Assembly: GCA_046155605.1 (NCBI GenBank) | Contig: JBJXFQ010000011.1 | Coordinates: 6,842-70,841, forward strand | Reading direction: 5' to 3' | Source of the DNA: Phycisphaerales bacterium | GTDB taxonomy: Bacteria; Planctomycetota; Phycisphaerae; Phycisphaerales; UBA1924 | Length of the DNA stretch: 64,000 bases | Part shown: one piece after another, positions 13,317 through 29,583 of the stretch | How positions within the stretch are numbered: the first letter of the stretch is position 1 | How the letters are laid out: each line of letters opens with the position of its first letter | Made by a program: the position numbers and the translations under genes | The notes under the pieces: generated by a model | Told to the model about the DNA's origin: nothing | Database searches by the model: none | Seen by the model: only the letters and a program-made list of their open reading frames with translations

Positions 13317-16300
13317 CGCGCGAGCGGTGGGCGCGGGTGAAGGCGGTGTTCGAGGTCGCCCTGGCGGTGCCGGAGATGGAGCGTGCGGCGGCGGTCACGC
13401 GCGAGGCCGGTGATGATGCCGCGCTCGCCGCGGAAGTCGAATCGCTGCTGGCCCATCACGGACGGGCAACCGGATTCATGGAAGTCGGACGGTTGGCGAC
13501 CTTGACCGGCGGCGCATCCGCGCGCCCGGTTTCCACTCAGGCAACGCCAAAGGCGATCGGTGGGTACGCGATCGAGCGCGAGTTGGGCCGCGGCGGGATG
13601 GGCGTCGTCTATCTCGCACGCGATCCAGTGCTGGATCGGCCCGTGGCGATCAAGGTGTTGTCGGAAGCCATGTCGCGCGACGCCGAGGGGCTGATGCGGT
13701 TCGAGCGCGAGGCCCGCATCCTCGCCGCCCTCAACCACCCCAACATCGCGGCGATCCATAGCCTGGGCACCGATGACGGCGGCTCTCGCTTCCTCGTGCT
13801 CGAATACGCGGAAGGCAAATCACTCGGCGAGCGGCTCGGCGAGGGCGCGATGACCGTCGCCGAGGCCGCCGGCGTGCTCGCGCAGGTCGCTCGCGCCGTC
13901 GAGGCCGCTCACGACCGCGGCGTCATCCACCGTGATCTCAAGCCCGACAACATCCGCGTCAGCGCTGACGGCCTCGTCAAGGTGCTGGATTTCGGGCTCG
14001 CCAGGCGATGGGCCACGACGGATCATCCGAGCACGACGACACTGGACAGTTCGGCGGCGCTCCTCGCCACGACGCCCGGCCTCATCATGGGCACGCCCGG
14101 CTACATGAGCCCCGAGCAGGCCCGCGGGCAGGAGGTTGACAAGCGGACCGACATCTTCGCGCTCGGGTGTGTCGCGTATGCGTGCCTGACGGGCCGAGGG
14201 CCATTTTCCAAGGGCTCGATCGGCGATTCGGTGGCGGCGGTGCTCTCGGAAGAGGCGGATTGGAGCCGATTGCCGACTCAGTTGCCCGCCGGGCTGCGCG
14301 CGGTCCTGGAGCGATGCCTGGCGAAGGATCCTGAGCGGCGGCTGCGCGACGCGGGCGAGGTGCGCCGAGAGGCGGAGGCGGCAATCGGCGGCGGACGAAG
14401 CACGGGCGGGTTTGCTGGGCCGTCGCTCTTCGTGCAGGCCTCGCGATTGCCCGCGCCGGCGCCGACCAACCTCCCGCGCCAGATGACGAGCTTTGTCGGT
14501 CGGCACGCCGAGATCGATCGCGTCCGCGAGATGCTCGGCAGCGCGGCCTTGCTCACGCTGTCGGGCGCGGGCGGCTGCGGCAAGACGCGGCTGGCCCTCC
14601 GCATCGGTGAACTGATGGCCGGCGCGTTCACCGGAGGCGTCTGGCTCGTCGAGGTCGCCGGCGTCATGGATTCATCGCTCGTCGCGGCAGCGGCGGCGGC
14701 GGCCCTTGGCGTCAAGGAGCAGGCGGGCCGGCCTGTCGTGCAGTCGCTCGTCGATCGGCTCGAGACCAAGTCGGCCCTGCTGATCCTCGACAACTGCGAG
14801 CACCTGCTCGCGGCCTGCGGGGAACTCGTCGGCACGCTCCTCCGAGCCTGCCCGGACCTCCGCATCATCGCCACCAGCCGCGAGCCGCTGGGTGTCGTCG
14901 GCGAGGCGACCTATCGCGTGCCCTCGCTTGCCGTCCCGCCCGCGCGACACGAACCCGGGGCCGCCGTCGAGCGCTTCGAGGCCGTTGAACTCTTCGTCGA
15001 GCGTGCCCGTGCGGCGCGACCGGGCTTTGAGGTCACACCCGAGACCGCGGCGACCATTGCCGAGGTCTGCCGGCGGCTGGACGGGATCCCGCTGGCGATT
15101 GAGTTGGCCGCGGCGCGTATCCGCGTCCTCTCGCCCGAGCAGATCCACGCCAAACTCCACGACCGCTTCCGGCTGCTTATCGGCGGCAGCCGCACCGCCC
15201 TCGAACGGCACCAGACCCTACGGGCCGCCATCGATTGGAGTTACGACCTGCTGCCCGAGGACGAGCGACAGGTGCTGCGGACGCTCTCGGTCTTTGCCGG
15301 CGGCAGCACGCTCGAATCCGCGGGCGCGGTGTGCGCCGTCGACGAGTTCGGGCTGCTCGACGCGCTGACCCACCTGGCCGACAAATCGCTGGTCATGGTT
15401 GACGACCACGGAGAGCACCCTCGCTATCGCATGCTCGAAACGGTTCGGCAATACGCCCGCGAGAAGTTGCAATCGGCGTCGTCGGCCGAGGTCGAATCCG
15501 CGTGCGAGAAGCACCTGGACTACTTCTGCTCGCTCGTCGAGCGGGCCGAGCCCGAACTCTTCGGCCCGCAGCAGCAGGCCTGGCTCAAGCGGCTTCACGA
15601 TGAGCACGACAACTGCCTGGCGGCGCTCGACTGGTGCGCGGCCTGCGGGGACGCGGGACACCACGAGAAGGCGCTGCGAGTCTGCGGCGCGCTGGCGCGC
15701 TTCTGGAACCTGCGCGGGCACCTGGCCGTCGGCCGGTCCGCCGTCGGGCGCGCGATGGCGGCGGTCACGGATCGCACGGCCCGCGCGAGCCTGGCCAAGA
15801 GCCTCAATGCCGCGGGGGGGCTCGCGTGCGTGGCGGGCGACTATGCCGAAGCACGCGAGCATTGGACGGCCACGCTCGAGATGCAGCGGGCGCTGGGAAA
15901 CTCGCGGGGCGAGGCGGGCGCGCTCAATAACCTCGGGCTCGTCGCCGAGAACCGGGGCGACTATTCCGCGGCGCGGACGCTCTATGAGCGCGCGCTCGAG
16001 ATCAACCGCGGCCTGGGCAACAAGTCGTGGGAGGCCATCAACCTCAATAACCTCGGCAATGTCGCGTGGAACATGCGCGACAACGCCACGGCACGGCAGA
16101 TGTACTCGGCCGCCCTCGCGCTCAATCGCGAACTCGGCAATCGCTCTGATGAGGCGCGGAACCTCAACAACCTGGGGACGGTGGCGCGCGAGGACGGGCA
16201 GGCCGGCGAGGCGAGGGCGCTCTTCCGCGAGGCGATCAAGATCAAGCAGGAACTGGGCGATCGGCAGGGATTGGCGGTGTCGTTCGGGCAACTCGCTCTT

Positions 16301-16675
16301 GCGGCAATCGATGCGGGTGATCGGGCCGGGGCGCGCAAGTTGATCGCCGAGGCACTCACGATCCGCCGCGACATACCGGATCAACTTGGGCTGGCGATGT
16401 CGCTGGCCGAGGCCGCGGGGCTCGCCGTCGCTGAGGGTGCGTGGGCGCTGGCTGCCACCTGGTTCGCGGCTTCTGAGCGCCTCCGCCACAGGCTCGGCGT
16501 GCCGTTGGCGCTGGGTGAACGGGCGCGATACGAGCGCGACCTCTCCGCTCTTCGAAGGGCACTGGACGAGGCGGCGTTCAATGCTGCGTGGTCAGCAGGC
16601 ATCGCCGCGCCAACGGCACGGGCCACCGAACAGGCCGGCGCATGGCTGGCGAAGGGACCGACCGCGGAAGCGTGA
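13313..16675 (+). CDS. Ser/Thr protein kinase fused to a STAND-type (NB-ARC/AAA-like) NTPase and C-terminal TPR repeats
   Basis: The GTG start at 13313 overlaps the sigma stop (GTGA). Kinase motifs are VAIKVL, HRDLKPDNI, DFGLAR and GTPGYMSPE. A Walker A-like motif LSGAGGCGKTRLA and LILDNCEH follow. The C-terminus has many TPR-like repeats (ALNNLG.., AINLNNLGNVA.., ARNLNNLGTVA). Confidence 0.85.
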   Translation: MTRERWARVKAVFEVALAVPEMERAAAVTREAGDDAALAAEVESLLAHHGRATGFMEVGRLATLTGGASARPVSTQATPKAIGGYAIERELGRGGMGVVYLARDPVLDRPVAIKVLSEAMSRDAEGLMRFEREARILAALNHPNIAAIHSLGTDDGGSRFLVLEYAEGKSLGERLGEGAMTVAEAAGVLAQVARAVEAAHDRGVIHRDLKPDNIRVSADGLVKVLDFGLARRWATTDHPSTTTLDSSAALLATTPGLIMGTPGYMSPEQARGQEVDKRTDIFALGCVAYACLTGRGPFSKGSIGDSVAAVLSEEADWSRLPTQLPAGLRAVLERCLAKDPERRLRDAGEVRREAEAAIGGGRSTGGFAGPSLFVQASRLPAPAPTNLPRQMTSFVGRHAEIDRVREMLGSAALLTLSGAGGCGKTRLALRIGELMAGAFTGGVWLVEVAGVMDSSLVAAAAAAALGVKEQAGRPVVQSLVDRLETKSALLILDNCEHLLAACGELVGTLLRACPDLRIIATSREPLGVVGEATYRVPSLAVPPARHEPGAAVERFEAVELFVERARAARPGFEVTPETAATIAEVCRRLDGIPLAIELAAARIRVLSPEQIHAKLHDRFRLLIGGSRTALERHQTLRAAIDWSYDLLPEDERQVLRTLSVFAGGSTLESAGAVCAVDEFGLLDALTHLADKSLVMVDDHGEHPRYRMLETVRQYAREKLQSASSAEVESACEKHLDYFCSLVERAEPELFGPQQQAWLKRLHDEHDNCLAALDWCAACGDAGHHEKALRVCGALARFWNLRGHLAVGRSAVGRAMAAVTDRTARASLAKSLNAAGGLACVAGDYAEAREHWTATLEMQRALGNSRGEAGALNNLGLVAENRGDYSAARTLYERALEINRGLGNKSWEAINLNNLGNVAWNMRDNATARQMYSAALALNRELGNRSDEARNLNNLGTVAREDGQAGEARALFREAIKIKQELGDRQGLAVSFGQLALAAIDAGDRAGARKLIAEALTIRRDIPDQLGLAMSLAEAAGLAVAEGAWALAATWFAASERLRHRLGVPLALGERARYERDLSALRRALDEAAFNAAWSAGIAAPTARATEQAGAWLAKGPTAEA

Positions 16676-16682
16676 CTCGGGC

Positions 16683-16964
16683 TTATTCCGCGCCGCCGCG
16701 CTGGACCTTGCCCTGCCGCTCGAGTTCTTTGGTCTTCGCCTCCATCTTCTGGAGGTCGGCCTGCTGCTCGGCGGTCAACGCTGGAGGCGGCTTGGCCGTG
16801 GCGGACTCGAACAGCCCGTTGTACCACGCGAAGACCACGCCCGCGACGACCAGCAGCACGATGGCGACCGCGAGTTTCGCCCCGTTGTTGCCGCCGCCGG
16901 ACTGCTTCTTCTGCTTCGTCCCGATGTTGTCAAATCCACGACCATCAGTCAGCGAACCGGCCAT
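16683..16964 (-). CDS. Small single-pass membrane protein, hypothetical
   Basis: 93-aa ORF with one clear TM segment (LAVAIVLLVVAGVVFAW) and a charged C-terminal helix. It lies immediately downstream of the co-oriented ABC-2 permease gene. Confidence 0.45.
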   Translation of the reverse strand: MAGSLTDGRGFDNIGTKQKKQSGGGNNGAKLAVAIVLLVVAGVVFAWYNGLFESATAKPPPALTAEQQADLQKMEAKTKELERQGKVQRGGAE

Positions 16965-17021
16965 GAGATACTCCCGAAACTGTGCGAGCAGAGTGCCCGC
17001 CTGGAAAATGATAGGGCGCGA

Positions 17022-18374
17022 TCAGCCCACGTCGCGCGTCTGGAACAAAACCACCCCGAGCGACAGGAACGCGACGATGTAGCCCAGCCCGTAGAGCGAG
17101 ACTTTCAGCATGTGTGACGCCGGAACGGGCTGATTCTGCGAGATCGCGTCGACGAACCAGAAATCGTGGAAGTTCGGCAGCACGGCCCAGGCGACGAGGG
17201 CCGGGACATTGGCTCGCGTGGGCGCGAGGAAGACATAATCGTCCGCGGCGGGGGCGCGATCAACGCGAAGGGCCGTCGGGCCGGCACGCCGAACCGTCAC
17301 ACCCTCGGGCTGCACCTCGGTGATCACCAGCCCGGCATCCGGCGAGCCCAGGATCGCGCCGTCTTTGCTTAGGTCACCCCCGAAAGGCGGAAAGTTCTCG
17401 ACGGCCATCGGGAAACCGTTGGGCGCCGATGAGAAATAAAAGGCGTCTCCAACGTGGATCGTCCGCTTGGGCGGCACGCGAAACGCGACCGCGTAGGTGT
17501 CGCCCGCCGTCGTCAGTGGCGTCTTCGTGTCGCCCATGGCCGTCGCTGACTTCACCCGCGCGACGTGCTCGTTGGTGAAGACGTGGCGACCCAGGGCCTG
17601 ATTGGTCAGCAGGCCGAACAGGAAACTCCCAGCGCAGACCACGATCGTCATTACCTGCCCCAGCCGGGTCGAGACGGCCGTGGCCAGCGACGTGAGCACC
17701 AGCAGGGCGATCCCCACCGCCGTGCAGGCAAACACGATCTGCGGCTTGAGGTCGACCACGGGCGACTGCCACTCCCACTTCTTATTGAGCACCAGCACCA
17801 ACCCGTAGGCGACGATCATCGCCGGCAGCAGGATCACCATGCTCGTCTGCGTGAAGTACCACCCGTAGAAGAAGTTGGTCCAGAGCGCGAGGCCCAGCGC
17901 GATCGCCACGGCGATGAACGTAAAGAGCAGCACCGGCCCGTCGAGGTCGTCGCTGGCGTTGCTCATCACCCCGTGCCGGACGGCTAGGAGCAGAAAGATG
18001 ACCATGAGCCCAATGGCGATGCCGATCGAACCCGCCACGCCGATGTATTTGCCGACGATGAGCACGGGCCTCGGGATCGGCTTGGAGACGACGGTGAGCA
18101 CGGTTTTGTTCTCGATCTCGCGCGAGACGACGGCGGTAGCCAGGAACGCCGACAGCAGCATCCCGCAGACGAAGACCGACGAGAGGCCGAGGTCGAGCAG
18201 GAGTTTGTTGTCGGCGGAGACCTCGGAGGTGTCGGAGTACCCCATCGAGAATCCGGTGCTCCAGGTCAGGAAGACCTGGATAATGCCGCACACCAGCACG
18301 AGCACGAAAAAGATGGGCTGGCGGATGCTCTCGACGAAGGCGTTGCGGGCGATGGTGAGGGTTTGTGAGAGCAT
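17022..18374 (-). CDS. ABC-2 family (NosY/COG1277-like) transporter permease with a large extracytoplasmic insert
   Basis: 450-aa polytopic ORF. The block SREIENKTVLTVVSKPIPRPVLIVGKYIG is typical of NosY-like ABC-2 permeases. Confidence 0.7.
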   Translation of the reverse strand: MLSQTLTIARNAFVESIRQPIFFVLVLVCGIIQVFLTWSTGFSMGYSDTSEVSADNKLLLDLGLSSVFVCGMLLSAFLATAVVSREIENKTVLTVVSKPIPRPVLIVGKYIGVAGSIGIAIGLMVIFLLLAVRHGVMSNASDDLDGPVLLFTFIAVAIALGLALWTNFFYGWYFTQTSMVILLPAMIVAYGLVLVLNKKWEWQSPVVDLKPQIVFACTAVGIALLVLTSLATAVSTRLGQVMTIVVCAGSFLFGLLTNQALGRHVFTNEHVARVKSATAMGDTKTPLTTAGDTYAVAFRVPPKRTIHVGDAFYFSSAPNGFPMAVENFPPFGGDLSKDGAILGSPDAGLVITEVQPEGVTVRRAGPTALRVDRAPAADDYVFLAPTRANVPALVAWAVLPNFHDFWFVDAISQNQPVPASHMLKVSLYGLGYIVAFLSLGVVLFQTRDVG

Positions 18375-18647
18375 GGGTGTTCGGTGAGAGGCAGGGTCGG
18401 GCCGGAGCCGGGACGGAAAGAGGGAATGGGAACAGCAAGAAAGAGGTTTGCGGCGAAAGATTTTTTCCTGGCCGCTACGAACATACTCGCCCCGGCCTCG
18501 TACTTCAACGTTGAGCCCGTGCTCCCGGTTCGCGCCGAATCGGGACGATCGTCGGTCTGGCGTTCGTCGGCGGGCAAAGCGGAAGAGGGAAGGGAGCGGT
18601 CTGGACAGACCAGACCGGCGCGGTCACAATAGTGCCCCCGCGGCCTG

Positions 18648-20741
18648 ATGGCCTCGGCAGGTGGAGCGCGGATGAAGCCCGACTATCTCAGTTACCAGCG
18701 TGCAGCAAGCCGAAGCCTCCTTGGACTATCGATCCAGATCGTCCTGGGTGTGATCGTGTTGGTCTACGGCGTGCTGGGCCGGGACCACGCGGCCATCACC
18801 GCGGCGTTGTTCATGCTCATCGGCGTGCCGATCTGGCTGACGCTCGCGGTCGTCTTCGACCAGCACCGCCGCGAGCGGATCGAGGCCGTCGAGGCCGAGG
18901 CCTTTGCGGCGTCCGATGCGGCGAGTTCCTCGGTCTTTGAGGATCGCGCGGACGAGTTGCGCGTCGCCGCCAAGCGGCTGCGGTTCATGCACAGGTGGCT
19001 CGTGCCCTCCGCGAGCCTGGTGGTCGGCGTGCTGATGGTCGGCGTCGGGCTCTGGCGGTTTGGGGCCGGTCGGGCGCTCATAGAGAACTTCCAGGCTCCG
19101 CGCCTTCGCGGCTGGTCTATCGCCATCGGGCTGGGCGTGGCGTTCGTCGGGTTCCTCTTCGCCCGCTACATGTCGGGCATGGCCAAGCAGAAGGCGTGGT
19201 CGAGCCTTCGAGCCGGAGCGGCTCATGCCGTCGGCACCGCGCTCGCCGGGCTAGCCATGGCCGTGGGCCAACTCGTCGATGTCGCCGGGCCAGATGTGAT
19301 CCTCAAGACGCTGCTTGTGGTCTTCCCCGTGGCGATGGGCGCGCTGGGGGCCGAGGTCTTCCTCAACTTCATCCTCGACGTCTATCGCCCGCGCAAGGCC
19401 GGCGAATATCCAAGGCCCGCCTTCGAGTCCCGCGTGCTGGGCTTTGTCGCCGCGCCGGACCGTATCGCCGAATCCATCGGCGAGGCGATCAACTACCAGT
19501 TCGGCTACGACGTCTCGTCGAGTTGGTTCTACAAACTGTTCAGCCGCGTTTTCCTGCGTCTGCTCGTTCCCGTCGCGCTCGTGGTCATGTGGAGCATGTC
19601 GTCGCTGGCGGTGATCCGTCCGCATGAGCGCGGGCTCGTGCTCCGCTGGGGTGCCTTCAGCCGCGAGGTCGGACCGGGCCTCAACTTCAAATGGCCTTGG
19701 CCGATGGAGACCGTTGAGATCCCCGCCTATGTCAAGCGCGACGCGGCGGGCAAGATCGAGATGCGCACCCGAACGGTCACGGGCGTGCGCACGCTGAACA
19801 TCGGAAGCCTCCCGCCCGCGCAGGACAAGCCGATCCTGTGGACCAACGAGCACGCGACCGAGGAGACGTTTTTCCTGGTGCAGCCCGCGCCCGAGGCGCA
19901 GGCCACCGGCGCGCTGGCGACGCTCGCCGTCGAGGTGCCGCTGCAGTACGAGATCGCGGACGTTCGGGCGTACGAGGAGATGGCCCCGCCGGCGATGCGC
20001 GATGACATCCTGAAATCGGTGGCGCAGCGCGCCTTGATGCTGTATCTGTCGTCGGTGCCCATCGGGGACCTGCTCTCGGGCCAGCGCGCCGACCTGCAGG
20101 CCGGGCTGCGCGAAAGGATCGAGGCCGCGTTCGCTTCGCTCAACCCCGATGCCGCCGGCAAGCCCCGCGGCGCGGGCGTCCGCGTGCTCTTTGTGGGGAT
20201 CGGCGGCGTCCACCCGCCCAAGGACACGGCGCGGTCCTTCGAGCAGGTCGTCGGGTCGCAGCAGAAGTACCAGGGCCGGATCAAAAAGGCCGAGGGCGAT
20301 GCGATCCAGACGCTGACCGAGGCGGCGGGAAGCGTTGAAGTTGCCCGGCAAATCGTCGCCGAACTCGACGCGCTCGAAGCGCTCCCCCCGCTCGCCGACG
20401 GCAAGCCTAACCCCTCGCTTATCCAGCAGCGACAGGCCGTGAGCAAACTCGTCGAAAAGGCAGGCGGCAAGGCCGCGGGGATCATTCTCGAGGCCAGCGC
20501 CGATCGCTGGAAGCGACACATGGGCGAGCGATCCCGGCTCGCCGCCTACCAGGGCCAACTCGGCGCCTATCTCGCCTCGCCCGCCGTCTATCGCGCGGGG
20601 CTCTACCTCGACGCGGTGCGAGTGGCCATGGAGAACGCCCGGGTGTACATCACGGATACGTCGACGCGGATGCAACACCGCCTCGAGTTTCAGGATCGTG
20701 ACAATGTGAGTGAGGTCCTGGGCAGCCAGGATAAGCCGTAG
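18648..20741 (+). CDS. Polytopic membrane protein with C-terminal SPFH/band 7 (HflK-like) domain
   Basis: 697-aa ORF. The N-terminal ~300 aa contain several TM segments. An SPFH start block follows: LAVIRPHERGLVLRWGAFSREVGPGLNFKWPWPMETVE. An alternative start is MKPDYL at 18672. Confidence 0.7.
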   Translation: MASAGGARMKPDYLSYQRAASRSLLGLSIQIVLGVIVLVYGVLGRDHAAITAALFMLIGVPIWLTLAVVFDQHRRERIEAVEAEAFAASDAASSSVFEDRADELRVAAKRLRFMHRWLVPSASLVVGVLMVGVGLWRFGAGRALIENFQAPRLRGWSIAIGLGVAFVGFLFARYMSGMAKQKAWSSLRAGAAHAVGTALAGLAMAVGQLVDVAGPDVILKTLLVVFPVAMGALGAEVFLNFILDVYRPRKAGEYPRPAFESRVLGFVAAPDRIAESIGEAINYQFGYDVSSSWFYKLFSRVFLRLLVPVALVVMWSMSSLAVIRPHERGLVLRWGAFSREVGPGLNFKWPWPMETVEIPAYVKRDAAGKIEMRTRTVTGVRTLNIGSLPPAQDKPILWTNEHATEETFFLVQPAPEAQATGALATLAVEVPLQYEIADVRAYEEMAPPAMRDDILKSVAQRALMLYLSSVPIGDLLSGQRADLQAGLRERIEAAFASLNPDAAGKPRGAGVRVLFVGIGGVHPPKDTARSFEQVVGSQQKYQGRIKKAEGDAIQTLTEAAGSVEVARQIVAELDALEALPPLADGKPNPSLIQQRQAVSKLVEKAGGKAAGIILEASADRWKRHMGERSRLAAYQGQLGAYLASPAVYRAGLYLDAVRVAMENARVYITDTSTRMQHRLEFQDRDNVSEVLGSQDKP

Positions 20742-20754
20742 GAGCCGACCCAAG

Positions 20755-21879
20755 ATGCGACGAGCCATCATTCTGGCGGTAAGCCTGGTCTTTGCGATCG
20801 CCATCCTGGCGAGATGGATGACCTACACCGTCCGCTTCACCGAGAACGCCGTGCTGACGACCTTCGGCAGCGCGGGGCCGGAAGCCAAAAAGGACACGCC
20901 GGGCCTGCGCCTCAAATGGCCCGACCCGATCCAAAGCGTCACCAAGTACGACACACGCTCGCGGTTCCTCCAGACCAAGTCGGAGACGCAGCAGACCGCC
21001 GACAGCCGCCAGTTGGTCGTCGAGGCCTACTGCGCGTACAAGGTCGCCGATCCGCTGCGGTTCTTCCAGCGCTTCAGCAACGAGGGTCCGACCGCCGCCG
21101 ATCACTTCCGCAAGGCCGAGGACGTGCTGCGCGGCGCCCTTCGTGCCGCGATGGCGGAGATCAGCAAGTATCGCATGACGGACCTCTTCTCCTCGAAGGC
21201 GGGTGCCTCCAAACTGCCCGAACTCGAGGCCCGCGTGCTCGCCACGCTCCGCGCATCGGGCGGCGGGGGCAACGGGCTCGACGCCTGGGGCATCGTCGTC
21301 GAGGACGTCGGCATCAACCGCATCGTCATGCCCGAGGAGACCACCCGCGAGGTCTTCGCCAGCATGAAGGAAGACCGCAGCCGCCTCATCAAGGAACTCG
21401 AGAGCAAGGGCGAGAGCCAGGCTCAGACCATCGTCAATACCGCCCGCACCAACGCGATCCGCATCGAGGAGTTTGCCAAGAGTTACGCCTCCGAAATTCG
21501 GCGCAAGGGCGACGAAGAGGCCCAGCAGTACGTCAAGCAGATGAACGAGAACCCGGAGTTGGCCGTGTTCCTGCGAAACGTCGAGTTCATCCGCCAATCA
21601 TGGTCGAAGCGCATGACGCTGGTGCTGAACACCGGCATGCCCGGCTTCGAACTCTTCTCGCCCTCCGCCATCCGCCGCGCCGCCCCGGGCCAGGTTCCCG
21701 GCGTTGACGGCCTCATGGGGGTCGCTTCCGAGGAGCAAGAACTCAAACGCAGCGAGAACCAGCGCCGCCTCGAGCAGGAGCAGGAGCGCCTCAAGACCCG
21801 CACCGGCGACGAAGAACCCGCACCAGGCAAATCTGGCACCGCCCAGCCCCCCACGCGCACGCCAGGAGCCGGACAGTGA
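20755..21879 (+). CDS. SPFH/band 7 domain protein (HflC-like)
   Basis: The ATG at 20755 is preceded by taggag. It has an N-terminal TM (IILAVSLVFAIAILA) and the block YTVRFTENAVLTTFG...PGLRLKWPDPIQSV. The C-terminus is a charged coiled region. Confidence 0.75.
   Translation: MRRAIILAVSLVFAIAILARWMTYTVRFTENAVLTTFGSAGPEAKKDTPGLRLKWPDPIQSVTKYDTRSRFLQTKSETQQTADSRQLVVEAYCAYKVADPLRFFQRFSNEGPTAADHFRKAEDVLRGALRAAMAEISKYRMTDLFSSKAGASKLPELEARVLATLRASGGGGNGLDAWGIVVEDVGINRIVMPEETTREVFASMKEDRSRLIKELESKGESQAQTIVNTARTNAIRIEEFAKSYASEIRRKGDEEAQQYVKQMNENPELAVFLRNVEFIRQSWSKRMTLVLNTGMPGFELFSPSAIRRAAPGQVPGVDGLMGVASEEQELKRSENQRRLEQEQERLKTRTGDEEPAPGKSGTAQPPTRTPGAGQ
21739..21810. repeat. 72-nt dispersed repeat, copy 1 (3' end of the second SPFH gene)
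   Basis: 69 of 72 nt are identical to 23202-23273. It encodes ELKRSENQRRLEQEQERLKTRTGD. Confidence 0.9.
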
Positions 21880-23294
21880 CGCCGCCCGAAGGGCCGGGCC
21901 GAGGACCAGGCCGCGGGGCCGGCTCAAAGCGAGACGCCTCGGTCAATCTGCGCACGCCGGGCGGCGGGGACGAGATGCCGGGGCTTGATCCGGCGAATCA
22001 GTCGCTCGCCGACGCGCTCCGACTCGTCTTCGTTCTCCTCCAGTTCTCCATGCTCGTCCTCTTCGCGCTCTTCGCGTTCTCCGGGTTCCAAACCGTCCGC
22101 GAGACCGAGAGCGGCGTCCGCCTCCTCTTCGGCCGCGTCACCGGCGAACGCCTCGACCCCGGCCCGCACCTCTCCTTCCCTTACCCCATGGGCGAACTCA
22201 TCCGTGTCGACACAGGGCTCGTCGCCCTCGAGGTCGATGAGGCTTTCTGGCCCGCCATCACCGAGGACCAGAAGCGGCTCACGCTCCAGCAGGTCATCCA
22301 ACAGAACAACAAACTCTCGCTCAAGCCCGGCGAGGACGGATCGCTCATCACCGGTGACGAGGCCATCGCCCACGCCAAGTGGCGCGTGCAATACGTCCGC
22401 CGCGATCCGCGCAAGTTCGTCCAGAACGTGCTCCCCGAGGCCGAACTCGACATCGTCCGCGCCGCCGTCGAGCGTGGCGTGGTCCAGGCCGTTGCGCAGA
22501 TTCCCCTTGACGATCTCCTGAAGCAATCGCCGGGCGAGACGGGCTCGGTGGCGTCGCGAGCGCGGGCGATCGCGCAGCAGTCGCTCGACCGCATCGACTC
22601 GGGCATCTCGATCGAGGGTCTGACGCTGCTCGACCGCACGCCTCCGTTCTTTGTCTACGCCGATTTCTCCGGCGTGCAATCGGCTCAGCAGAAGGCCAGC
22701 CAGCGACTGACCGACGCCGAATCGACGGCCCGCAACACGCTCAACGCCATGGCCGGCGATGCCAGCATTCCGCTGATCGCCCAGATCGACCGCTACGAGA
22801 CGGCGCTCGCGACCAACGACGCGGCCGCGCAAACCCAGGCGATGGACGCGATCCAGGCGCTCTTCGAGGGTCGCCCCACCAGCACCTCGGGCGAGCCTCT
22901 CGCCACCGGCGCCTCGGGCACCGTCACCGCGATCACCAACGAGGCCCGGCAGTACCGATCCAGCGTCGTCTCGCAGCGACGGGCGGAACTCGACTCGTTC
23001 CACGCCAAACTGGCGCAGTTCAAGTCCAACCCTGGGCTGGTGATCCAGCGCGAATGGGCCGACGCCATGGCCGAGTTCCTCTCCCGCGACATCGTCGAGG
23101 TCTTTGCGCTACCGCCCGGCCGCGCCGACGACATCACCGAGTTGTGGCTCAACCGCGACCCGGCGTGGGTCAAGGCAGTCGAATCCGCCCGCAAGGAGCG
23201 CGAACTTAAGCGCAGCGAGAACCAGCGCCGCCTCGAGCAGGAGCAGGAGCGCTTCAAGACCCGCACCGGCGACGTCGAACTGAAGGACCGGTAG
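21876..23294 (+). CDS. SPFH/band 7 domain protein (third paralog)
   Basis: The GTG at 21876 overlaps the upstream stop (GTGA); an alternative ATG is at 21975. It has a TM segment (LVFVLLQFSMLVLFALFAF) and the block FQTVRETESGVRLLFGRV...PGPHLSFPYPMGE. Confidence 0.65.
   Translation: MTPPEGPGRGPGRGAGSKRDASVNLRTPGGGDEMPGLDPANQSLADALRLVFVLLQFSMLVLFALFAFSGFQTVRETESGVRLLFGRVTGERLDPGPHLSFPYPMGELIRVDTGLVALEVDEAFWPAITEDQKRLTLQQVIQQNNKLSLKPGEDGSLITGDEAIAHAKWRVQYVRRDPRKFVQNVLPEAELDIVRAAVERGVVQAVAQIPLDDLLKQSPGETGSVASRARAIAQQSLDRIDSGISIEGLTLLDRTPPFFVYADFSGVQSAQQKASQRLTDAESTARNTLNAMAGDASIPLIAQIDRYETALATNDAAAQTQAMDAIQALFEGRPTSTSGEPLATGASGTVTAITNEARQYRSSVVSQRRAELDSFHAKLAQFKSNPGLVIQREWADAMAEFLSRDIVEVFALPPGRADDITELWLNRDPAWVKAVESARKERELKRSENQRRLEQEQERFKTRTGDVELKDR
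23202..23273. repeat. 72-nt dispersed repeat, copy 2 (3' end of the third SPFH gene)
   Basis: 69 of 72 nt are identical to 21739-21810. It encodes ELKRSENQRRLEQEQERFKTRTGD. Confidence 0.9.
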
Positions 23295-24554
23295 ATGGCC
23301 AGCACCCGCGCATCATCAGTCGGTCGCGTCGGCGCTCGCCAGGGCACCCCGCCCGGCGCGCCCGTCGTCGCCTGCCAAGGCCTCACCAAGGTCTTCAAGG
23401 ACTTCTGGCTCCGCCAGCGCGCCCGCGCCGTCGATAATCTCACCTTCGAGATCCACCCGCACGAGATCTTCGGCCTCCTCGGTCCCAACGGCTCGGGCAA
23501 AAGCACCACCATCAAGATCATCCTCGGGCTGCTGCGCCCCACGTCCGGGCGCGTCGCCGTCTTCGGCCTCCCGCCCACCGATGTCGGCATGAAGCGCCGC
23601 ATCGGGTACCTCCCCGAGGAGTCCTATCTCTACCCCTTCCTCGACGCCCGCGAGACCCTCGAGTATTACGCCAAACTCTTCGAGATCGACCGCCGAACCC
23701 GCGAACGCCGCATCGACGAACTGCTCGACATGGTGGGCCTGACCGCCGCCCAGTTCCGCCTCGTCCGCGAATACTCCAAGGGCATGCAGCGACGCATCGG
23801 CATCGCCCAGGCCCTCATCAACGACCCCGATTTCCTCATCCTCGATGAGCCGACCACCGGCCTCGATCCCATCGGCACCCGCCAGATCAAAGACCTCATC
23901 ATCGAACTCGGCCGCCGCGGCAAGACCGTGCTCCTTTCGAGCCACCTCCTCGCCGATGTCGAGGACTGCGTGCATCGCATGGTGATCCTCTATGGCGGGC
24001 GGCAGCGTGCCGAGGGCCGCTGCGAGGACCTGCTGGTGTCTCGCAACATGACGTCGATCGAGACGGACGTTCTCGACGACGCGACGATCGCCGAGGTCGA
24101 TCGGGTCATCCGCGCGCGCACGGGCGGGGCCGTGATCCGCGTCTCCAACCCGCGCCAGTCGCTCGAGGCACTCTTCCTCGATATCGTTGAGAAGGCCCGG
24201 GCGGAGCGTGTCGAGACCTCGGGCGCGCAGGCGGGCGGCGTCACCGCTTCCTTCCTTCGTGCCAAGCCCGACGAGGGCCGCGACGTGATCGATCGCCTCT
24301 CTCGCGAGGAGGCACCGGCAGCCGCGCCCGCCGCGACGAGCGAGCCCGCGCGACAGGCCGGACCCGATGCGAGCCTCATCGATCTGCTCGCCAAGGACGA
24401 AGCACCCGCGCCACCCCCGCGTCCGGCCAGGCCGGTTGACACCTCCGAGGTCGATCGCTCCGTCATCGGCTCGCTGCTCGATAGCAGGGGTGCCGACGAT
24501 GCCAGGAGTTCCGCCGACGCGGGCAACGGGCCGCCCGTGGAGCCCAAGCGTTGA
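23295..24554 (+). CDS. ABC transporter ATP-binding protein with ~110-aa low-complexity C-terminal extension
   Basis: Motifs are Walker A GPNGSGKST, signature YSKGMQRRIGIAQAL and Walker B FLILDEPTTGLD. The ATG directly follows the upstream stop (tagATG). Confidence 0.9.
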   Translation: MASTRASSVGRVGARQGTPPGAPVVACQGLTKVFKDFWLRQRARAVDNLTFEIHPHEIFGLLGPNGSGKSTTIKIILGLLRPTSGRVAVFGLPPTDVGMKRRIGYLPEESYLYPFLDARETLEYYAKLFEIDRRTRERRIDELLDMVGLTAAQFRLVREYSKGMQRRIGIAQALINDPDFLILDEPTTGLDPIGTRQIKDLIIELGRRGKTVLLSSHLLADVEDCVHRMVILYGGRQRAEGRCEDLLVSRNMTSIETDVLDDATIAEVDRVIRARTGGAVIRVSNPRQSLEALFLDIVEKARAERVETSGAQAGGVTASFLRAKPDEGRDVIDRLSREEAPAAAPAATSEPARQAGPDASLIDLLAKDEAPAPPPRPARPVDTSEVDRSVIGSLLDSRGADDARSSADAGNGPPVEPKR

Positions 24555-26491
24555 GACCGCGAGACGTGCTGGCGCGACTGGGGCGGTGGCAGCGGTCCAA
24601 GCCGTTCAAGATCATCGCTTCCATCGTCGTTCTGGCCCTCGCCATAGCCGCCATCGGCGTCGTGATGGTCCAAGCCCAGCAGACGCCCGACTTCGATATC
24701 GCCGAGCCCGATCCCACGTCGACCCCGCTCACCCCGGAAGAGCGTGCCGAGTTCGATGCCGTCCGTGACATCGCCAAGCAGATCGCCAACGCAAGCAACG
24801 ATCCCATCAGCGTCTCGCTGGGCATCGGCATCATCGCCGTCGTCGCCATCGTCACGGTCTGGCTCGGGCTGGGCCTGACCTATCTCGCGCTAGGCATCGT
24901 CGCGTTCGGCATCGCCTGGCCCATGTCGTTGCTGGGCTGGACGGCCCTGTCGCGCCTTGTGATCGGCGTGCTCATTCTCGCCGCCGCGTTCGGCACGCTC
25001 ATGGAAGCCCTCAAGGCGCTGCTCTCGGGCGCGGGTCCCGTCCTCGCCATCGCGCGCAACATGCTCGCCGAGGCCATCCGGATGAAGGTCGCCCTCGTCT
25101 TCATCGTCGTCCTCATTCTCGGCCTCGCGTACCTCCCGGAATCGCTCTCGCTCGAATCCCCGCTCCGCTACCGCGTGCAGAGTTTCCTTCAATACGGCAC
25201 GGGCGGCTCGTTCTGGCTCATCGCCCTCCTCACCCTCTTTCTCACGATCGCCTCCGTCGCATTCGAGCAGCGCGACAAGCAGATCTGGCAGACCGCCACC
25301 AAACCCGTCTCCGCGTGGCAATACATCCTCGGCAAGTGGGTCGGCATGGTCGGGCTCAATGCCGTCCTGCTGCTCGTCTGTTGCGCCGGCGTCTTCCTCT
25401 TCACCGAGTACCTCCGCCGACAGCCCGCCCAGGGCGAGGTCTCGCGCATGATGACCGGCGCGGGCGAACTCGCGATCAGCGAGGACCGCCGCCTGCTCGA
25501 GACCCAGGTGCTCACCGCCCGCGTCACCGTCGAGCCCGCGCCGCCGTTTCTCAAGACCGACCCGGCCTTTCAGGAGGGCGTCAAGGCGTATATCGAGAAC
25601 GCCCGCAAGAGCGAGCCCACCTTCGCCGTCGATCCCGGCATGCGCGAGGTCGTCGAGTCGGACCTCTACAAGAGCGCCGTCGGAGCGGCACGCGTCGTCG
25701 AGGTCGGACAACGCGCCGCGTTTCAGTTCTACGGCCTCGAGCACGCCAAGCGCCACAGCCGCATGCTCACTCTCCGTTACAAAATCGACGCCGGAAGCAA
25801 CGAGCCCCAGACCACGTTTCGCGTCACGTTCATCTTTGGCGGCACCCGACTCCCCACGCAGGTCGTCGGCCTTGGCACCATGCAGACCCTGACCATCCCC
25901 ACTCCGCAGGTCATCGACGAGCAGGGCCACGTCGAACTCGCGGTCTTCAACGGCGAACTTGTGGACCTTGCCGACCCGCCGGGTGCCATCGCCATCCGCC
26001 CGAATGAATCGACCATGGCGTTCTCGAAGGACGGCCTTGAAATCTCCTATTCGCGAGGCAGTTTCGCCGGCAACTTCGCCCGCGTCGTCGGCGTCCTCTG
26101 GTTGAAACTGGCTTTCCTCTCGATGCTTGGGATCGCCTGCGCCACGTTCCTTTCGTTCCCCGTTGCCTGCCTGGTCGCCTTCGCGATTTTCTTCGCGGCA
26201 GAGGGTGGGTCGTTCCTCACCATGTCGCTCGAGTATTACGACGCCGCGCCGCAAGGCAAGGAGGTCGAGCCGCATCGGGTCGTGATCCGCGCGATCGGGC
26301 TGGTCGTCGCCTGGGCGCTCCGCCCCTATGCCGAACTTCAGCCCACGGCAAGGCTTGTGGACGGCAAACTGCTCGACTGGCTGAAGATCGGGTATGCGAC
26401 GGGCATGGTCGCGGCCTGGACGGCCGTGCTCTACCTCGCGGGCGTCCTGATTTTCCGCCGGCGCGAACTCGCCACCTACTCGGGGCACTAG
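24551..26491 (+). CDS. Large ABC-2 family (NosY-like) permease with extracytoplasmic domain
   Basis: 646-aa polytopic ORF. The block FEQRDKQIWQTATKPVSAWQYILGKWVG parallels the 17022-18374 permease. The TTG start overlaps the ATPase stop (TTGA), so the start is uncertain. Confidence 0.7.
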   Translation: MRPRDVLARLGRWQRSKPFKIIASIVVLALAIAAIGVVMVQAQQTPDFDIAEPDPTSTPLTPEERAEFDAVRDIAKQIANASNDPISVSLGIGIIAVVAIVTVWLGLGLTYLALGIVAFGIAWPMSLLGWTALSRLVIGVLILAAAFGTLMEALKALLSGAGPVLAIARNMLAEAIRMKVALVFIVVLILGLAYLPESLSLESPLRYRVQSFLQYGTGGSFWLIALLTLFLTIASVAFEQRDKQIWQTATKPVSAWQYILGKWVGMVGLNAVLLLVCCAGVFLFTEYLRRQPAQGEVSRMMTGAGELAISEDRRLLETQVLTARVTVEPAPPFLKTDPAFQEGVKAYIENARKSEPTFAVDPGMREVVESDLYKSAVGAARVVEVGQRAAFQFYGLEHAKRHSRMLTLRYKIDAGSNEPQTTFRVTFIFGGTRLPTQVVGLGTMQTLTIPTPQVIDEQGHVELAVFNGELVDLADPPGAIAIRPNESTMAFSKDGLEISYSRGSFAGNFARVVGVLWLKLAFLSMLGIACATFLSFPVACLVAFAIFFAAEGGSFLTMSLEYYDAAPQGKEVEPHRVVIRAIGLVVAWALRPYAELQPTARLVDGKLLDWLKIGYATGMVAAWTAVLYLAGVLIFRRRELATYSGH

Positions 26492-26500
26492 GAACAACGG

Positions 26501-28465
26501 ATGCAGCGCAACACCATCATCCAGATCGTCGCGCTCGCGGTCGCGCTCGTCGCGCTGGCGGGCTCGGGCGTTCTGGCCGTCCAGATTTCGGCCTCCGCGG
26601 GACGCAACCGCCTCTCGTACACCGATTCCGCGATCGAGGGCCAGCCCCCGCAGGTCGCGGCGGGCATCGCGATGGGTGCCTTTCGCGGGCTCTTCGTCAA
26701 CATGCTCTGGATCCGCGCCAACCAGATGAAGGAAGACGGCCGTTTCCACGAGGCCATCGACCTTGCCAAGGCCATCACCACCCTCCAACCGCGCTTCCCG
26801 CAGGTCTGGGTCTTTCACGCCTGGAACATGGCGTACAACATCTCTGTCCAGACCAAGACTAACGCCGAACGCTGGACATGGGTCGAGGCCGGGATCAATC
26901 TCCTCCGCGACAAGGCGATCCCCGCCAACCCGAACGACATGCTGATCCACAAGGAACTGGCCTGGATTTTCATCCACAAGGTCGGTGCCTATATGGACGA
27001 TTCCAACCTCTATTACAAGCGGCAGATCGCCGCGGAATGGTCGCTCATCCTGGGTCCGCCGCCAAAGCCGGATCCCAAGGATCGCAGTTTCGAGGGCTGG
27101 ACGGGCCGCTACGCCGCGTGGCTTGAACCGATCTCCCGCGCCCCCGATTCGCTTGACGACGTCATCGCCGCCGAGCCAACGGTGCAGGCGCTCATCGATC
27201 GGCTGACAGAAGCCGAGATCGGCATCAAGCCCGGGCTGGCGCGAAACTACACGATCACCAAGACCGTCATGGAATCCGCCGAACGCGGGCTCTTCGAGAA
27301 AAAACTCGTCGAGCCCAAGTATCAGGTCATGTTCAAACTCGTGGCCGATCCGGAGATGACCAAGGCCTGGGACGCGCTGATCCCCCACCTCCGCAAGCGC
27401 ATGCTCGTGGAGGACTACCACATGGAGCCGGATCGCATGATCCGCTACACCCGCGAGTTCGGCCCCATCGACTGGCGACACTTCGCCGCCCACGGGCTCT
27501 ACTGGGCGACCCGCGGGTTCGAGAACGCGCTCCTCCGCTACACAGCGGCCAACCGCAAGGACTTCGACTTCATCAACGGCGGACGCATGGTCATCCACGC
27601 CATCCAGGACCTCTGGCGGTCCGGCGACGTTCACTTTGACCTCATGGGGTGGATCAAGGACCCGGACAGCCCGCGTACCGCGCTCTACGCCGCCCCCCAC
27701 GTGCTCTTCATCGAGTCATACGGCGCGCGGCTCGAGAAGTACGTCAACATGAGTTGGGCCGACAAAAAGAGCCGCGTCTACAGCATGTATTCCGCCGGCT
27801 ACGAGAACTTCACCAAGGACGCGATCCGCTTCCTCTATCGCCAGGGCAACCGCCAGCGGGCCGAGAAACTCAAGGACGAACTGGGCGTCTGGACGGGCCA
27901 GAACCTGACCGACCCGGATCGCATCTCGCTCTTCAAACTCTCGCTCGACGACTTCGTTAAAAAGGAACTCGAAGAGCAACTCACGCGGCCCTCCGTCGCC
28001 CGCGAAGAGGTCGTCGGCGCGCTGCAGGCCGCCTATGTCAACGGCCTGCTCGCCCGCGATCCTGACGCGTTTACGACCAACCTCGAATACGCCAAGAGCA
28101 TCCACGCCTTTTTCTTCTCGCGCCAGTCCTACCGCAACCTGCTCGACCCGAGCACCGTCCGCATGGAGCAGATCGACTCAAACTTCGCGGTCGTCGCGGG
28201 CCAGGCCTTCGCCGTGCTGGCGTCCAACCTCGACCTCACCGACGCCGAGACGCTCTTTGACCAAGCCCCCGCCGACCTCAAGCGGTGGGCATATGACATC
28301 ATCCGCGAGATCTTCAAGGTCGGCATGGATGCATCGGTCGCCGACGGCGGCAAGCCGTTCGACCGCGCCTTCCCCGAGCCCGAGGGCATGGCCGCCCACC
28401 GCGCGATGCTCGTCCGGCTCGAGGCCGAGCGCAAGGCCGCCATGCCGGGCGTCGAGCGGCAGTAA
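26501..28465 (+). CDS. Membrane-anchored helical-repeat protein, hypothetical (last gene of the SPFH/ABC cluster)
   Basis: 654-aa ORF with an N-terminal TM (IIQIVALAVALVALAGSGVLAV). The rest is predicted alpha-helical by composition, and no enzyme motif was recognised. It lies 10 nt downstream of the permease gene. Confidence 0.55.
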   Translation: MQRNTIIQIVALAVALVALAGSGVLAVQISASAGRNRLSYTDSAIEGQPPQVAAGIAMGAFRGLFVNMLWIRANQMKEDGRFHEAIDLAKAITTLQPRFPQVWVFHAWNMAYNISVQTKTNAERWTWVEAGINLLRDKAIPANPNDMLIHKELAWIFIHKVGAYMDDSNLYYKRQIAAEWSLILGPPPKPDPKDRSFEGWTGRYAAWLEPISRAPDSLDDVIAAEPTVQALIDRLTEAEIGIKPGLARNYTITKTVMESAERGLFEKKLVEPKYQVMFKLVADPEMTKAWDALIPHLRKRMLVEDYHMEPDRMIRYTREFGPIDWRHFAAHGLYWATRGFENALLRYTAANRKDFDFINGGRMVIHAIQDLWRSGDVHFDLMGWIKDPDSPRTALYAAPHVLFIESYGARLEKYVNMSWADKKSRVYSMYSAGYENFTKDAIRFLYRQGNRQRAEKLKDELGVWTGQNLTDPDRISLFKLSLDDFVKKELEEQLTRPSVAREEVVGALQAAYVNGLLARDPDAFTTNLEYAKSIHAFFFSRQSYRNLLDPSTVRMEQIDSNFAVVAGQAFAVLASNLDLTDAETLFDQAPADLKRWAYDIIREIFKVGMDASVADGGKPFDRAFPEPEGMAAHRAMLVRLEAERKAAMPGVERQ

Positions 28466-28538
28466 GCCTCGCGGCGTCATTCTTCACTTCTCACTTCTCT
28501 TCCTTGCCGCGCCGCTGCTTCATTGCATTTCGCGCTGC

Positions 28539-29498
28539 TCACCCGCACAGTCGCTCCTTCGCCTCCCGATACCGCGACAGCGTCTGCTCCACGATCCGAT
28601 CCGGCAGCGCCGGCCCGGGCGGCTCTTTCCGCCAACGCCCCGCGTCCACCAATCCCTGCAAGTATTCCCGCAGAAACTGCTTGTCGAAACTCGGCTGCGC
28701 GCGCCCAGGCTCATACTGATCCACGGGCCAGAACCGCGAACTGTCGGGCGTGAGCGCCTCGTCGATGAGCACCGGCTCGCCGCGATCATCAAGCCCAAAC
28801 TCGAACTTCGTGTCCGCGATGATGATGCCGCGCGCCAGCGCGTGCTCCGCCGCCGCACCATAGATGGCGAGCGACATGTCACGCAACCTTTCCAGCAGCC
28901 CGCCCCCCACTGCCGCCGCCGCGGCCTCGAACGACACGTTCTCGTCGTGCCCCTCCGCCGCCTTGGTCGCCGGCGTGAAGATCGGCGACGGCAGCCGCTC
29001 GCACCGCCGCAGACCCTTCGGCAGCGCCACCCCGCACACCGCGCCGGTCGTCTGATAGTCAGCCCATCCAGACCCCTCTAAGTACCCACGCACGACGCAC
29101 TCGATCGGCACCACCCGGCACGCCCGCGCGATCGTCACCCGCCCGCGCAACAACTCCGCCCGCGTCGTCCCTTCCCCCGCGAAAGCCGCCGCCGGTATGT
29201 CATCGACTCGCGTCGAGATCAGGTGCGTCCGCGCCAACCCCTGCCGTTCGATGAATCCGAACCACCACGACGCGATCTCCGTGAGCAGTTTGCCCTTCCC
29301 CGGCACGGGCGTTGGCATCACCACGTCAAACGCCGAGATCCGATCCGTCGCCACGATCAAGAGCCGTGGGTCACCACGATCCCCCGGCAACTCGTACACG
29401 TCCCGCACCTTCCCTTGCCGTCGGCCCGGGAGGTTGAGATTTGAGGCAAAGAGCGGCGATTCGGTCATGCCGCCATCGTACCGGCGAGTGCCCGTCAC
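28539..29498 (-). CDS. purC: Phosphoribosylaminoimidazole-succinocarboxamide (SAICAR) synthase
   Basis: 319-aa ORF. Blocks are GKVRDVYEL, LIVATDRISAFD, FADTKFEFG-like (IIADTKFEFGL) and TPDSSRFW. Confidence 0.9.
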   Translation of the reverse strand: MTGTRRYDGGMTESPLFASNLNLPGRRQGKVRDVYELPGDRGDPRLLIVATDRISAFDVVMPTPVPGKGKLLTEIASWWFGFIERQGLARTHLISTRVDDIPAAAFAGEGTTRAELLRGRVTIARACRVVPIECVVRGYLEGSGWADYQTTGAVCGVALPKGLRRCERLPSPIFTPATKAAEGHDENVSFEAAAAAVGGGLLERLRDMSLAIYGAAAEHALARGIIIADTKFEFGLDDRGEPVLIDEALTPDSSRFWPVDQYEPGRAQPSFDKQFLREYLQGLVDAGRWRKEPPGPALPDRIVEQTLSRYREAKERLCG

Positions 29499-29583
29499 GC
29501 GACTTCACCCGCGCACGCGGCACGGGCAAGGGCCACCTAGCATCCCGGCCCGCCGACCGCGGGTCTGGAGGCTCGCCCGGCGT

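Follow-up and report, generated by a model that had tools for sequence, protein, structure and literature searches.

A gene cluster conserved in Planctomycetota joins three SPFH proteins to an ABC-2 transporter and may corral transition-metal transport machinery

It is still an open question which functions bacterial SPFH proteins (HflK/C, flotillin, stomatin) have apart from the regulation of FtsH. A transporter type relevant to the present work is represented by NosDFY, in which, according to its published structure, an ABC-2 transporter can reportedly serve periplasmic metal hand-over as a mechanotransducer and not as a pump. In Pseudomonas aeruginosa, one cluster (PA2434–PA2439) encodes an HflK-family protein (PA2439), an HflC (PA2438), an HflC-family protein (PA2437) and the P1B ATPase and importer HmtA (PA2435); its expression rises 5.6- to 14-fold when zinc is depleted (PMC4542158). 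Zur binds the PA2439 promoter (PMC8531726), and the PA2434–PA2439 proteins rise in zinc-depleted cells (PMC11761036). The organism has canonical HflK/C besides this trio, PaFlo5-7 (PMC13086221). Here we describe a locus that bears on the roles of such proteins, a module of seven genes (B–H, positions 17022–28465) in a 64,000-nucleotide (nt) stretch of the genome of a Phycisphaerales bacterium (assembly GCA_046155605.1, contig JBJXFQ010000011.1, positions 6,842 to 70,841 of the forward strand; hereafter the window, whose own numbering is used throughout). The module joins three SPFH genes (C, D and E) to the genes of an ABC-2 transporter (B, F and G) and of an anchored α-solenoid protein (H), and we found no published account of an SPFH trio combined with such a transporter. 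We propose, with a probability of about 0.42, that the locus encodes an SPFH cage corralling transition-metal transport machinery.

Family searches support all three SPFH genes called in the initial annotation, which had been made from the letters of the window, with Band_7 matches of 58, 74 and 48 bits for C, D and E against a cut-off of 23.6. C (18648..20741, forward strand) encodes a long HflK-like protein of 697 amino acids, with Band_7 at residues 322–552 and an N-terminal polytopic domain of about 300 amino acids (hydropathy scan). The protein has an invariant membrane glutamate, Glu236, which is also present in the proteobacterial homolog, and the motifs YRPR..GE.PRPAFDSR and NYQFGF. 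The C profile matches E. coli HflK at 5e-37, and a profile search found no PDB relatives of residues 1–300. D (20755..21879, forward; 374 amino acids) is an HflC-like protein whose alignment with E. coli HflC runs from one end to the other (residues 2–290 against 2–314), and the ATG start at 20755 is consistent with the homolog alignments. E (21876..23294, forward; 472 amino acids) is HflK-like, with an N-terminal tail of about 50 amino acids followed by a transmembrane (TM) segment, and matches E. coli HflK at 1.5e-9. D, E and H each have a single N-terminal anchor (hydropathy scan), and the HflK/C architecture of membrane anchor, SPFH/Band_7 domain and long helical C-terminal region is present in C, D and E. 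The equivalog cut-offs were not reached by any of the three: C and E scored 71.9 and 96.1 bits on the HflK model TIGR01933 (cut-off 159.4) and D scored 75.6 bits on the HflC model TIGR01932 (cut-off 134.4). D and E share an 87-nt segment at their 3′ ends (21731–21817 and 23194–23280; 92% identity) that encodes ELKRSENQRRLEQEQER(L/F)KTRTGD and are otherwise divergent, which suggests local gene conversion or a C-terminal contact motif common to two SPFH subunits.

The trio has relatives outside the phylum. A tblastn search of plasmids with C gave three matches, all from Burkholderiaceae, of which two were analysed. On plasmid pl1WSM5005 of Paraburkholderia sprentiae (locus L135, 8683–14735), the match to C is the first gene of a row of four, encoding a 606-amino-acid 'HflK' with a polytopic N terminus, a 354-amino-acid HflC with a His-rich N terminus (HGHHQHHHHDH), a 391-amino-acid SPFH protein and a 612-amino-acid cation P-type ATPase. 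This cassette adjoins zigA, a zinc ABC importer and PCu(A)C. The same four genes lie between insertion sequence (IS) elements on the conjugative plasmid pMSMB2035 of Burkholderia ubonensis (locus L139, 6194–12206), and the cassette looks mobile; the flanking elements are IS5, IS110 and IS66. C matches the plasmid position-1 proteins with 84 and 74 bits, covering its residues 140–559 including TM helices, compared with 48 bits for E. coli HflK. D matches the plasmid HflC-like proteins with 66–67 bits, compared with 57 bits for E. coli HflC. C and D are the reciprocal best matches of cassette genes 1 and 2, and the plasmid proteins of positions 1 and 2 match only C and D here. We interpret the trio as ancestrally tied to an HmtA-type pump. 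The initial annotation could not assign the combination of genes to a described system, which holds for the union of SPFH proteins with an ABC-2 transporter but not for the trio, which is of the type that accompanies HmtA (PMC4542158, PMC8531726, PMC13086221).

A P1B metal pump also adjoins the cluster in planctomycete relatives. At three loci (L035, L046 and L050) a P1B ATPase of about 650 amino acids lies between E and F; these pumps match TIGR01525 at 505–547 bits, have no HMA domain and score slightly higher on the Cd/Zn subfamily model than on the Cu model. At 15 further loci, including that of the cultured strain ZRK34 (CP050848.1), a P1B pump is found upstream or downstream of B. The pumps beyond B, which occur in either orientation in Phycisphaerales/Phycisphaerae, are 43–57% identical to the three pumps between E and F. 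A His-rich N terminus, a CPC motif and LLHNV(G/S) in the last helices are common to these cluster-adjacent planctomycete pumps and the proteobacterial pump. There are four different pump arrangements with adjacency preserved, which argues for selection on the linkage. Two metagenomic genomes have B-C-D-E-P1B followed by an AhpC/TlpA-like redoxin gene (L137, 8871–15775; L138, 9037–16566) and lack F (the ABC ATPase), G and H, so that the B-type membrane protein travels there with the trio alone. Because this type of trio adjoins the Zur-responsive HmtA pump in Proteobacteria, and a pump adjoins the cluster in relatives, the most likely job of the locus would be acquisition or hand-over of a transition metal (Zn/Cu).

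From each of 20 Phycisphaerales genomes, representing six families, we took about 19 kb surrounding the H homolog and compared gene order by tblastn with all window proteins. C-D-E-F-G-H had the same order in all 20, and B was adjacent in 19 (divergent in 18, co-directional in one). Among 119 fetched loci, 63 had the architecture of the window, with B divergent from C-D-E-F-G-H, and a further 20 had this architecture plus an adjacent P1B ATPase; the others were mostly contig-end fragments, the rest being reduced forms. The B|CDEFGH order also occurs in several other Planctomycetota families, and the best 80 loci found with a 7-sequence alignment were nearly all from Phycisphaerales or other Planctomycetota. 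Gene order is thus kept far beyond the source genome, the check on which the initial annotation had made its reading depend. Every one of the 41 genomes sampled within the order had an H homolog. Across the phylum, H-like proteins were found in 150 of 201 genomes, mostly matching the N-terminal 190 residues, and C-like proteins in 50 of 201, with about 36 matches reaching the polytopic domain. The reduced loci include forms without SPFH genes, either B-F-G-H or F with an H-like gene, and six genomes with such loci had no C match anywhere at E 1e-5 or better. The SPFH set had been described as hard-wired to an ABC exporter; the link is frequent but not obligatory, as each part occurs alone.

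This independence of the parts is what one would expect if the SPFH and ABC genes were separate systems that are mere neighbours. We regard such an arrangement as highly improbable, given the way the genes are joined and kept together. The six forward genes form the tight operon proposed initially, with every open reading frame at its predicted coordinates and every junction an overlap or a gap of at most 13 nt: C/D is a 13-nt gap, D/E a 4-nt overlap (21876–21879), E/F has no gap (23294/23295), F/G is a 4-nt overlap (24551–24554) and G/H a 9-nt gap. Translational coupling is indicated at the E/F and F/G junctions, that is, between the sub-modules and within the transporter. Moreover, SPFH/ABC adjacency persists in ten or more families of the phylum although its surroundings have been rearranged, and when C and H homologs share a contig they are adjacent in 20 of 22 pairs (phylum sample, coordinate tables). 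Because the SPFH/ABC fusion persists in Planctomycetota with translational coupling, we favour a single machine.

F (23295..24554, forward; 419 amino acids) is an ABC ATPase, as first annotated (ABC_tran, 108.7 bits), with intact Walker A, signature, Walker B and H-loop motifs and a Pro/Ala-rich tail of about 100 amino acids. It is nearest to the DrrA and GldA subfamilies, under their cut-offs (TIGR01188, 198 bits; TIGR03522, 193 bits). B (17022..18374, reverse strand; 450 amino acids) matches ABC2_membrane_2 (PF12679) with 40.9 bits, above the cut-off of 27.2, and G (24551..26491, forward; 646 amino acids) does so weakly, with 25.6 bits, just below it. The two are paralogous in their ABC-2 core (29% over 112 amino acids, E 3e-8) and may form a heterodimer. 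B has a soluble insert of about 165 amino acids (about residues 257–424) before its last TM segment. The AlphaFold2 model of G (predicted local distance difference test score (pLDDT) 87.9; predicted template modelling score (pTM) 0.85) has four extra N-terminal helices, then the ABC-2 core and an insert of about 210–225 amino acids (about residues 296–504) that forms a β-sandwich. The annotation of two ABC-2 permeases, one with a big insert, was accordingly sound, and both in fact carry inserts; the label 'NosY-like' holds at the Pfam family level and not beyond it. With intact ATPase motifs and a permease of ABC-2 fold, the set has the features of a type V (ABC-2) ABC transporter.

The properties of this transporter bear on a different function, in which B, F and G, with H, export or remodel an envelope glycan or lipid-linked polymer in the manner of Wzm/Wzt, TarGH or GldAFG, the SPFH proteins provide only a microdomain and the pump link is secondary. 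Exporters are the closest subfamilies to F (DrrA, GldA and NodI), and the best Foldseek matches of the G insert, a periplasmic jelly-roll, are the BcsB carbohydrate-binding domain and CBM36/35/4 jelly-rolls. These matches are weak, however (E 1e-3 to 1e-1 over about 125–160 columns), and the β-sandwich is a generic fold. B-F-G-H stands alone in genomes without a C-type SPFH gene, and the presence of H in 150 of 201 phylum genomes is as expected for a general envelope function. Conversely, no glycosyltransferase, polymerase or lipid-carrier gene is linked in any examined locus, all Gld family cut-offs are missed, and envelope export leaves unexplained why the trio and B travel with a P1B pump without F, G and H. 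On balance we consider it unlikely. The initial annotation had suggested a microdomain-organized machine for export or envelope maintenance; the idea of one conserved unit stands, whereas the link to a metal pump shifts the favoured function towards metal transport.

H (26501..28465, forward) is a membrane-anchored helical protein of 654 amino acids, as annotated at the outset. Its AlphaFold2 model, made from a 41-sequence alignment (pLDDT 86.4, pTM 0.84), has one N-terminal TM helix followed by an all-α solenoid. Foldseek against the PDB returned only generic TPR/HAT repeats (E 0.02 or worse), a sequence profile of H found no match in the PDB, and Pfam gave no family for 8 diverse H homologs. 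The identification of H as a known chaperone or enzyme was dropped, as the PDB fold search gave no enzyme-like fold. The family is large, with 2371 clusters at 50% identity, and is most conserved in the N-terminal 190 or so amino acids and in the motif PxDWRHxxAHxLYW (residues 308–335). Across 41 homologs M313 and H331 are invariant and D324 and H327 nearly so, and these four residues are a candidate metal site.

We also considered protein quality control, in which D and E (with C) are simply the HflC and HflK of this lineage and modulate an unlinked FtsH, the ABC transporter being a co-transcribed part of a membrane-stress regulon or an FtsH-related client. C, D and E are the sole HflK/C-like genes of the genome, its other SPFH genes encoding a flotillin with NfeD and one odd protein. 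The full-length alignment of D with E. coli HflC fits this role, as does the fact that E and its homologs score higher with E. coli HflK than with gene 3 of the plasmid cassettes. As initially noted, there is no protease or NfeD gene at the locus: FtsH is encoded on contig C142, and flotillin and NfeD on contig C96. That is weak evidence against quality control because hflKC is unlinked to ftsH in E. coli as well. On the other side, C, D and E miss the NCBIfam HflK/HflC equivalog cut-offs by a wide margin. In planctomycete genomes without the cluster there is no C match at E 1e-5 or better, so that an HflK-like gene is not detectable there, whereas nearly all bacteria have FtsH. Nothing in the FtsH system corresponds to the polytopic domain of C or to the conserved neighbouring pump and ABC genes, and P. 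aeruginosa has its canonical HflK/C beside the trio (PMC13086221). A quality-control function therefore strikes us as quite improbable.

We return to the proposal of an SPFH cage around metal transport machinery. The locus would encode one multi-protein machine of the cytoplasmic membrane, made of two sub-modules. Given their homology to E. coli HflK and HflC and their topology, C, D and E would most likely assemble together, forming a ring or cage of HflK/HflC type at the periplasmic face. B, F and G would make up the type-V ABC-2 transporter, which H, its companion throughout Planctomycetota, would accompany. The SPFH assembly might then hold the P1B pump, whose gene is here on contig C67, together with the ABC-2 machine within a single patch of membrane. 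This machine could work either as an ATP-driven exporter or as a mechanotransducer acting towards its own periplasmic domains and towards H, much as NosFY does in copper delivery. The genes present, their conservation and homologies and the pump's place in the neighbourhood are observed directly; formation of the complex, the topology of the cage, the metal and the direction of transport are inferred. A more specific form of the model, in which the trio ring encloses B, F, G, H and the P1B pump, and the fenced patch forms a periplasmic nanocompartment where scarce metal is handed over between machines or to client proteins, seems to us doubtful in its full extent. If true, this would give a bacterial SPFH3 cage its first defined set of clients other than a protease and would explain the Zur-regulated SPFH trio of Pseudomonas.

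Several observations weigh against this proposal. The P1B pump is absent from the contig of the window, and from the locus in this genome and in most of its family. The ortholog in the same genome (contig C67, 10779–13163; locus L136; 41–43% identity) stands alone between gpsA and an amidohydrolase gene and has CPA in place of the transmembrane metal motif CPC of its relatives. Its N terminus is His-rich (MHTHSGGHTHEH), and its ion specificity may have changed after it left the cluster. The metal link here rests on relatives. Orthology at position 3 of the trio is ambiguous since E is closer to E. coli HflK, which it matches at 42 bits while giving no match to the plasmid position-3 proteins. 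The G insert resembles a carbohydrate-binding module and not a metal-binding fold. The idea that the N-terminal domain of C is CDF-like lacks support, with Pfam Cation_efflux detected in only 3 of 22 members and no PDB match. We identified no metal regulator, chaperone or Zur-like box in the window, and found no RNA sequencing runs for the organism, only DNA metagenomes (biofilter and sludge). In P. aeruginosa, triple deletion of PaFlo5-7 had mild phenotypes in assays that did not include metal limitation (PMC13086221).

The divergent control region (18375..18647) is the 273-nt spacer between B and C. It contains a promoter-like element, TGGACA-17-CACAAT, at 18602–18630 (promoter scan), overlapped by an inverted repeat, CGGTCTGG-N5-CCAGACCG, at 18597–18617, with an extra copy of CGGTCTGG at 18553–18560. 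A perfect palindrome, TCAACGTTGA, lies at 18505–18514. The same-genus genome has all three elements, although an indel of 94 nt falls between them, and the palindrome and the inverted repeat are candidate operators. No Zur box was recognizable in 18375–18647 on inspection by eye, and an Rfam search of 16000–29500 gave no match.

A (16683..16964, reverse strand) lies downstream of B and encodes a 93-amino-acid protein with one TM segment (residues 28–46, hydropathy scan) and no family match. It had been grouped with B as one of two genes running divergently from the shared intergenic region. B is indeed divergent, but A is probably outside the conserved module because it is conserved only in a same-genus genome (83% identity) and, as one weak 45-bit match, in another genome of the same family. 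The surrounding genes are unrelated by family searches, encoding a kinase-STAND-TPR protein upstream and PurC and a GH10-like protein downstream. GC content is uniform (0.63–0.70) and thus gives no hint of a recent island. Elsewhere in the genome, a 586-amino-acid protein encoded on contig C38 (locus L053, 3404–5164) has a partial Band_7 domain at residues 302–456, and its gene is flanked by genes for a di-haem cytochrome c peroxidase and a TPR protein with an RNA polymerase α C-terminal domain. A PADLOC scan for an anti-phage defence role gave only generic ATPase similarity for F and left the other seven proteins unmatched.

The module provides genetically linked candidate clients for SPFH proteins, namely an ABC-2 transporter, a solenoid family of more than 2000 clusters and, in relatives, a P1B pump. 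It also gives a first functional context to the Pfam-less H and to the long HflK-like protein, which carries the database name 'protease modulator HflK'.

Profile searches do not place the cluster with GldAFG, Nos or Lol/MacB, and the initial annotation's own check for a characterized system thus came back without gliding, Nos, Lol/MacB or defence. The likeness to NosDFY(L) lies in a PF12679 ABC-2 permease with a DrrA-like ATPase and serves as a working analogy only: family searches found no NosD β-helix, NosL or nosZ among the genes of the locus, which has two different permeases with soluble inserts of their own and an α-solenoid, H, as partner. On the GldA model F reaches 192.7 bits, and G has a weak match to GldF (18.6 bits), but the cut-offs (402.6 and 288.5, respectively) are far off, there is no GldG-like protein and the host is a planctomycete, not a member of the Bacteroidota. 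Among solved structures, E. coli HflK/HflC with FtsH (PDB 7VHP, 7WI3 and 9CZ1/2) come closest to C, D and E; they are likewise SPFH3-type proteins, anchored at the N terminus, with the SPFH domain in the periplasm and a long helical C terminus. The window differs in having three paralogs instead of two, all below the equivalog cut-offs, in the additional 300-amino-acid polytopic domain of C, and in genomic partners that are transporters and not hfq-hflX. The nearest described relative of the trio is the PaFlo5-7/HmtA locus, itself functionally unexplained, which we compared through its published annotation (PMC4542158) and the plasmid homologs and not by direct alignment. Compared with that locus, the pump is unlinked in the window and B, F, G and H are added, all four being absent from the two plasmid cassettes. 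The trio has the same order in each, a long polytopic HflK-like protein, an HflC-like protein and a third SPFH protein, and this links across phyla a planctomycete core operon, the zinc-starvation trio of Pseudomonas and mobile cassettes on Burkholderia plasmids.

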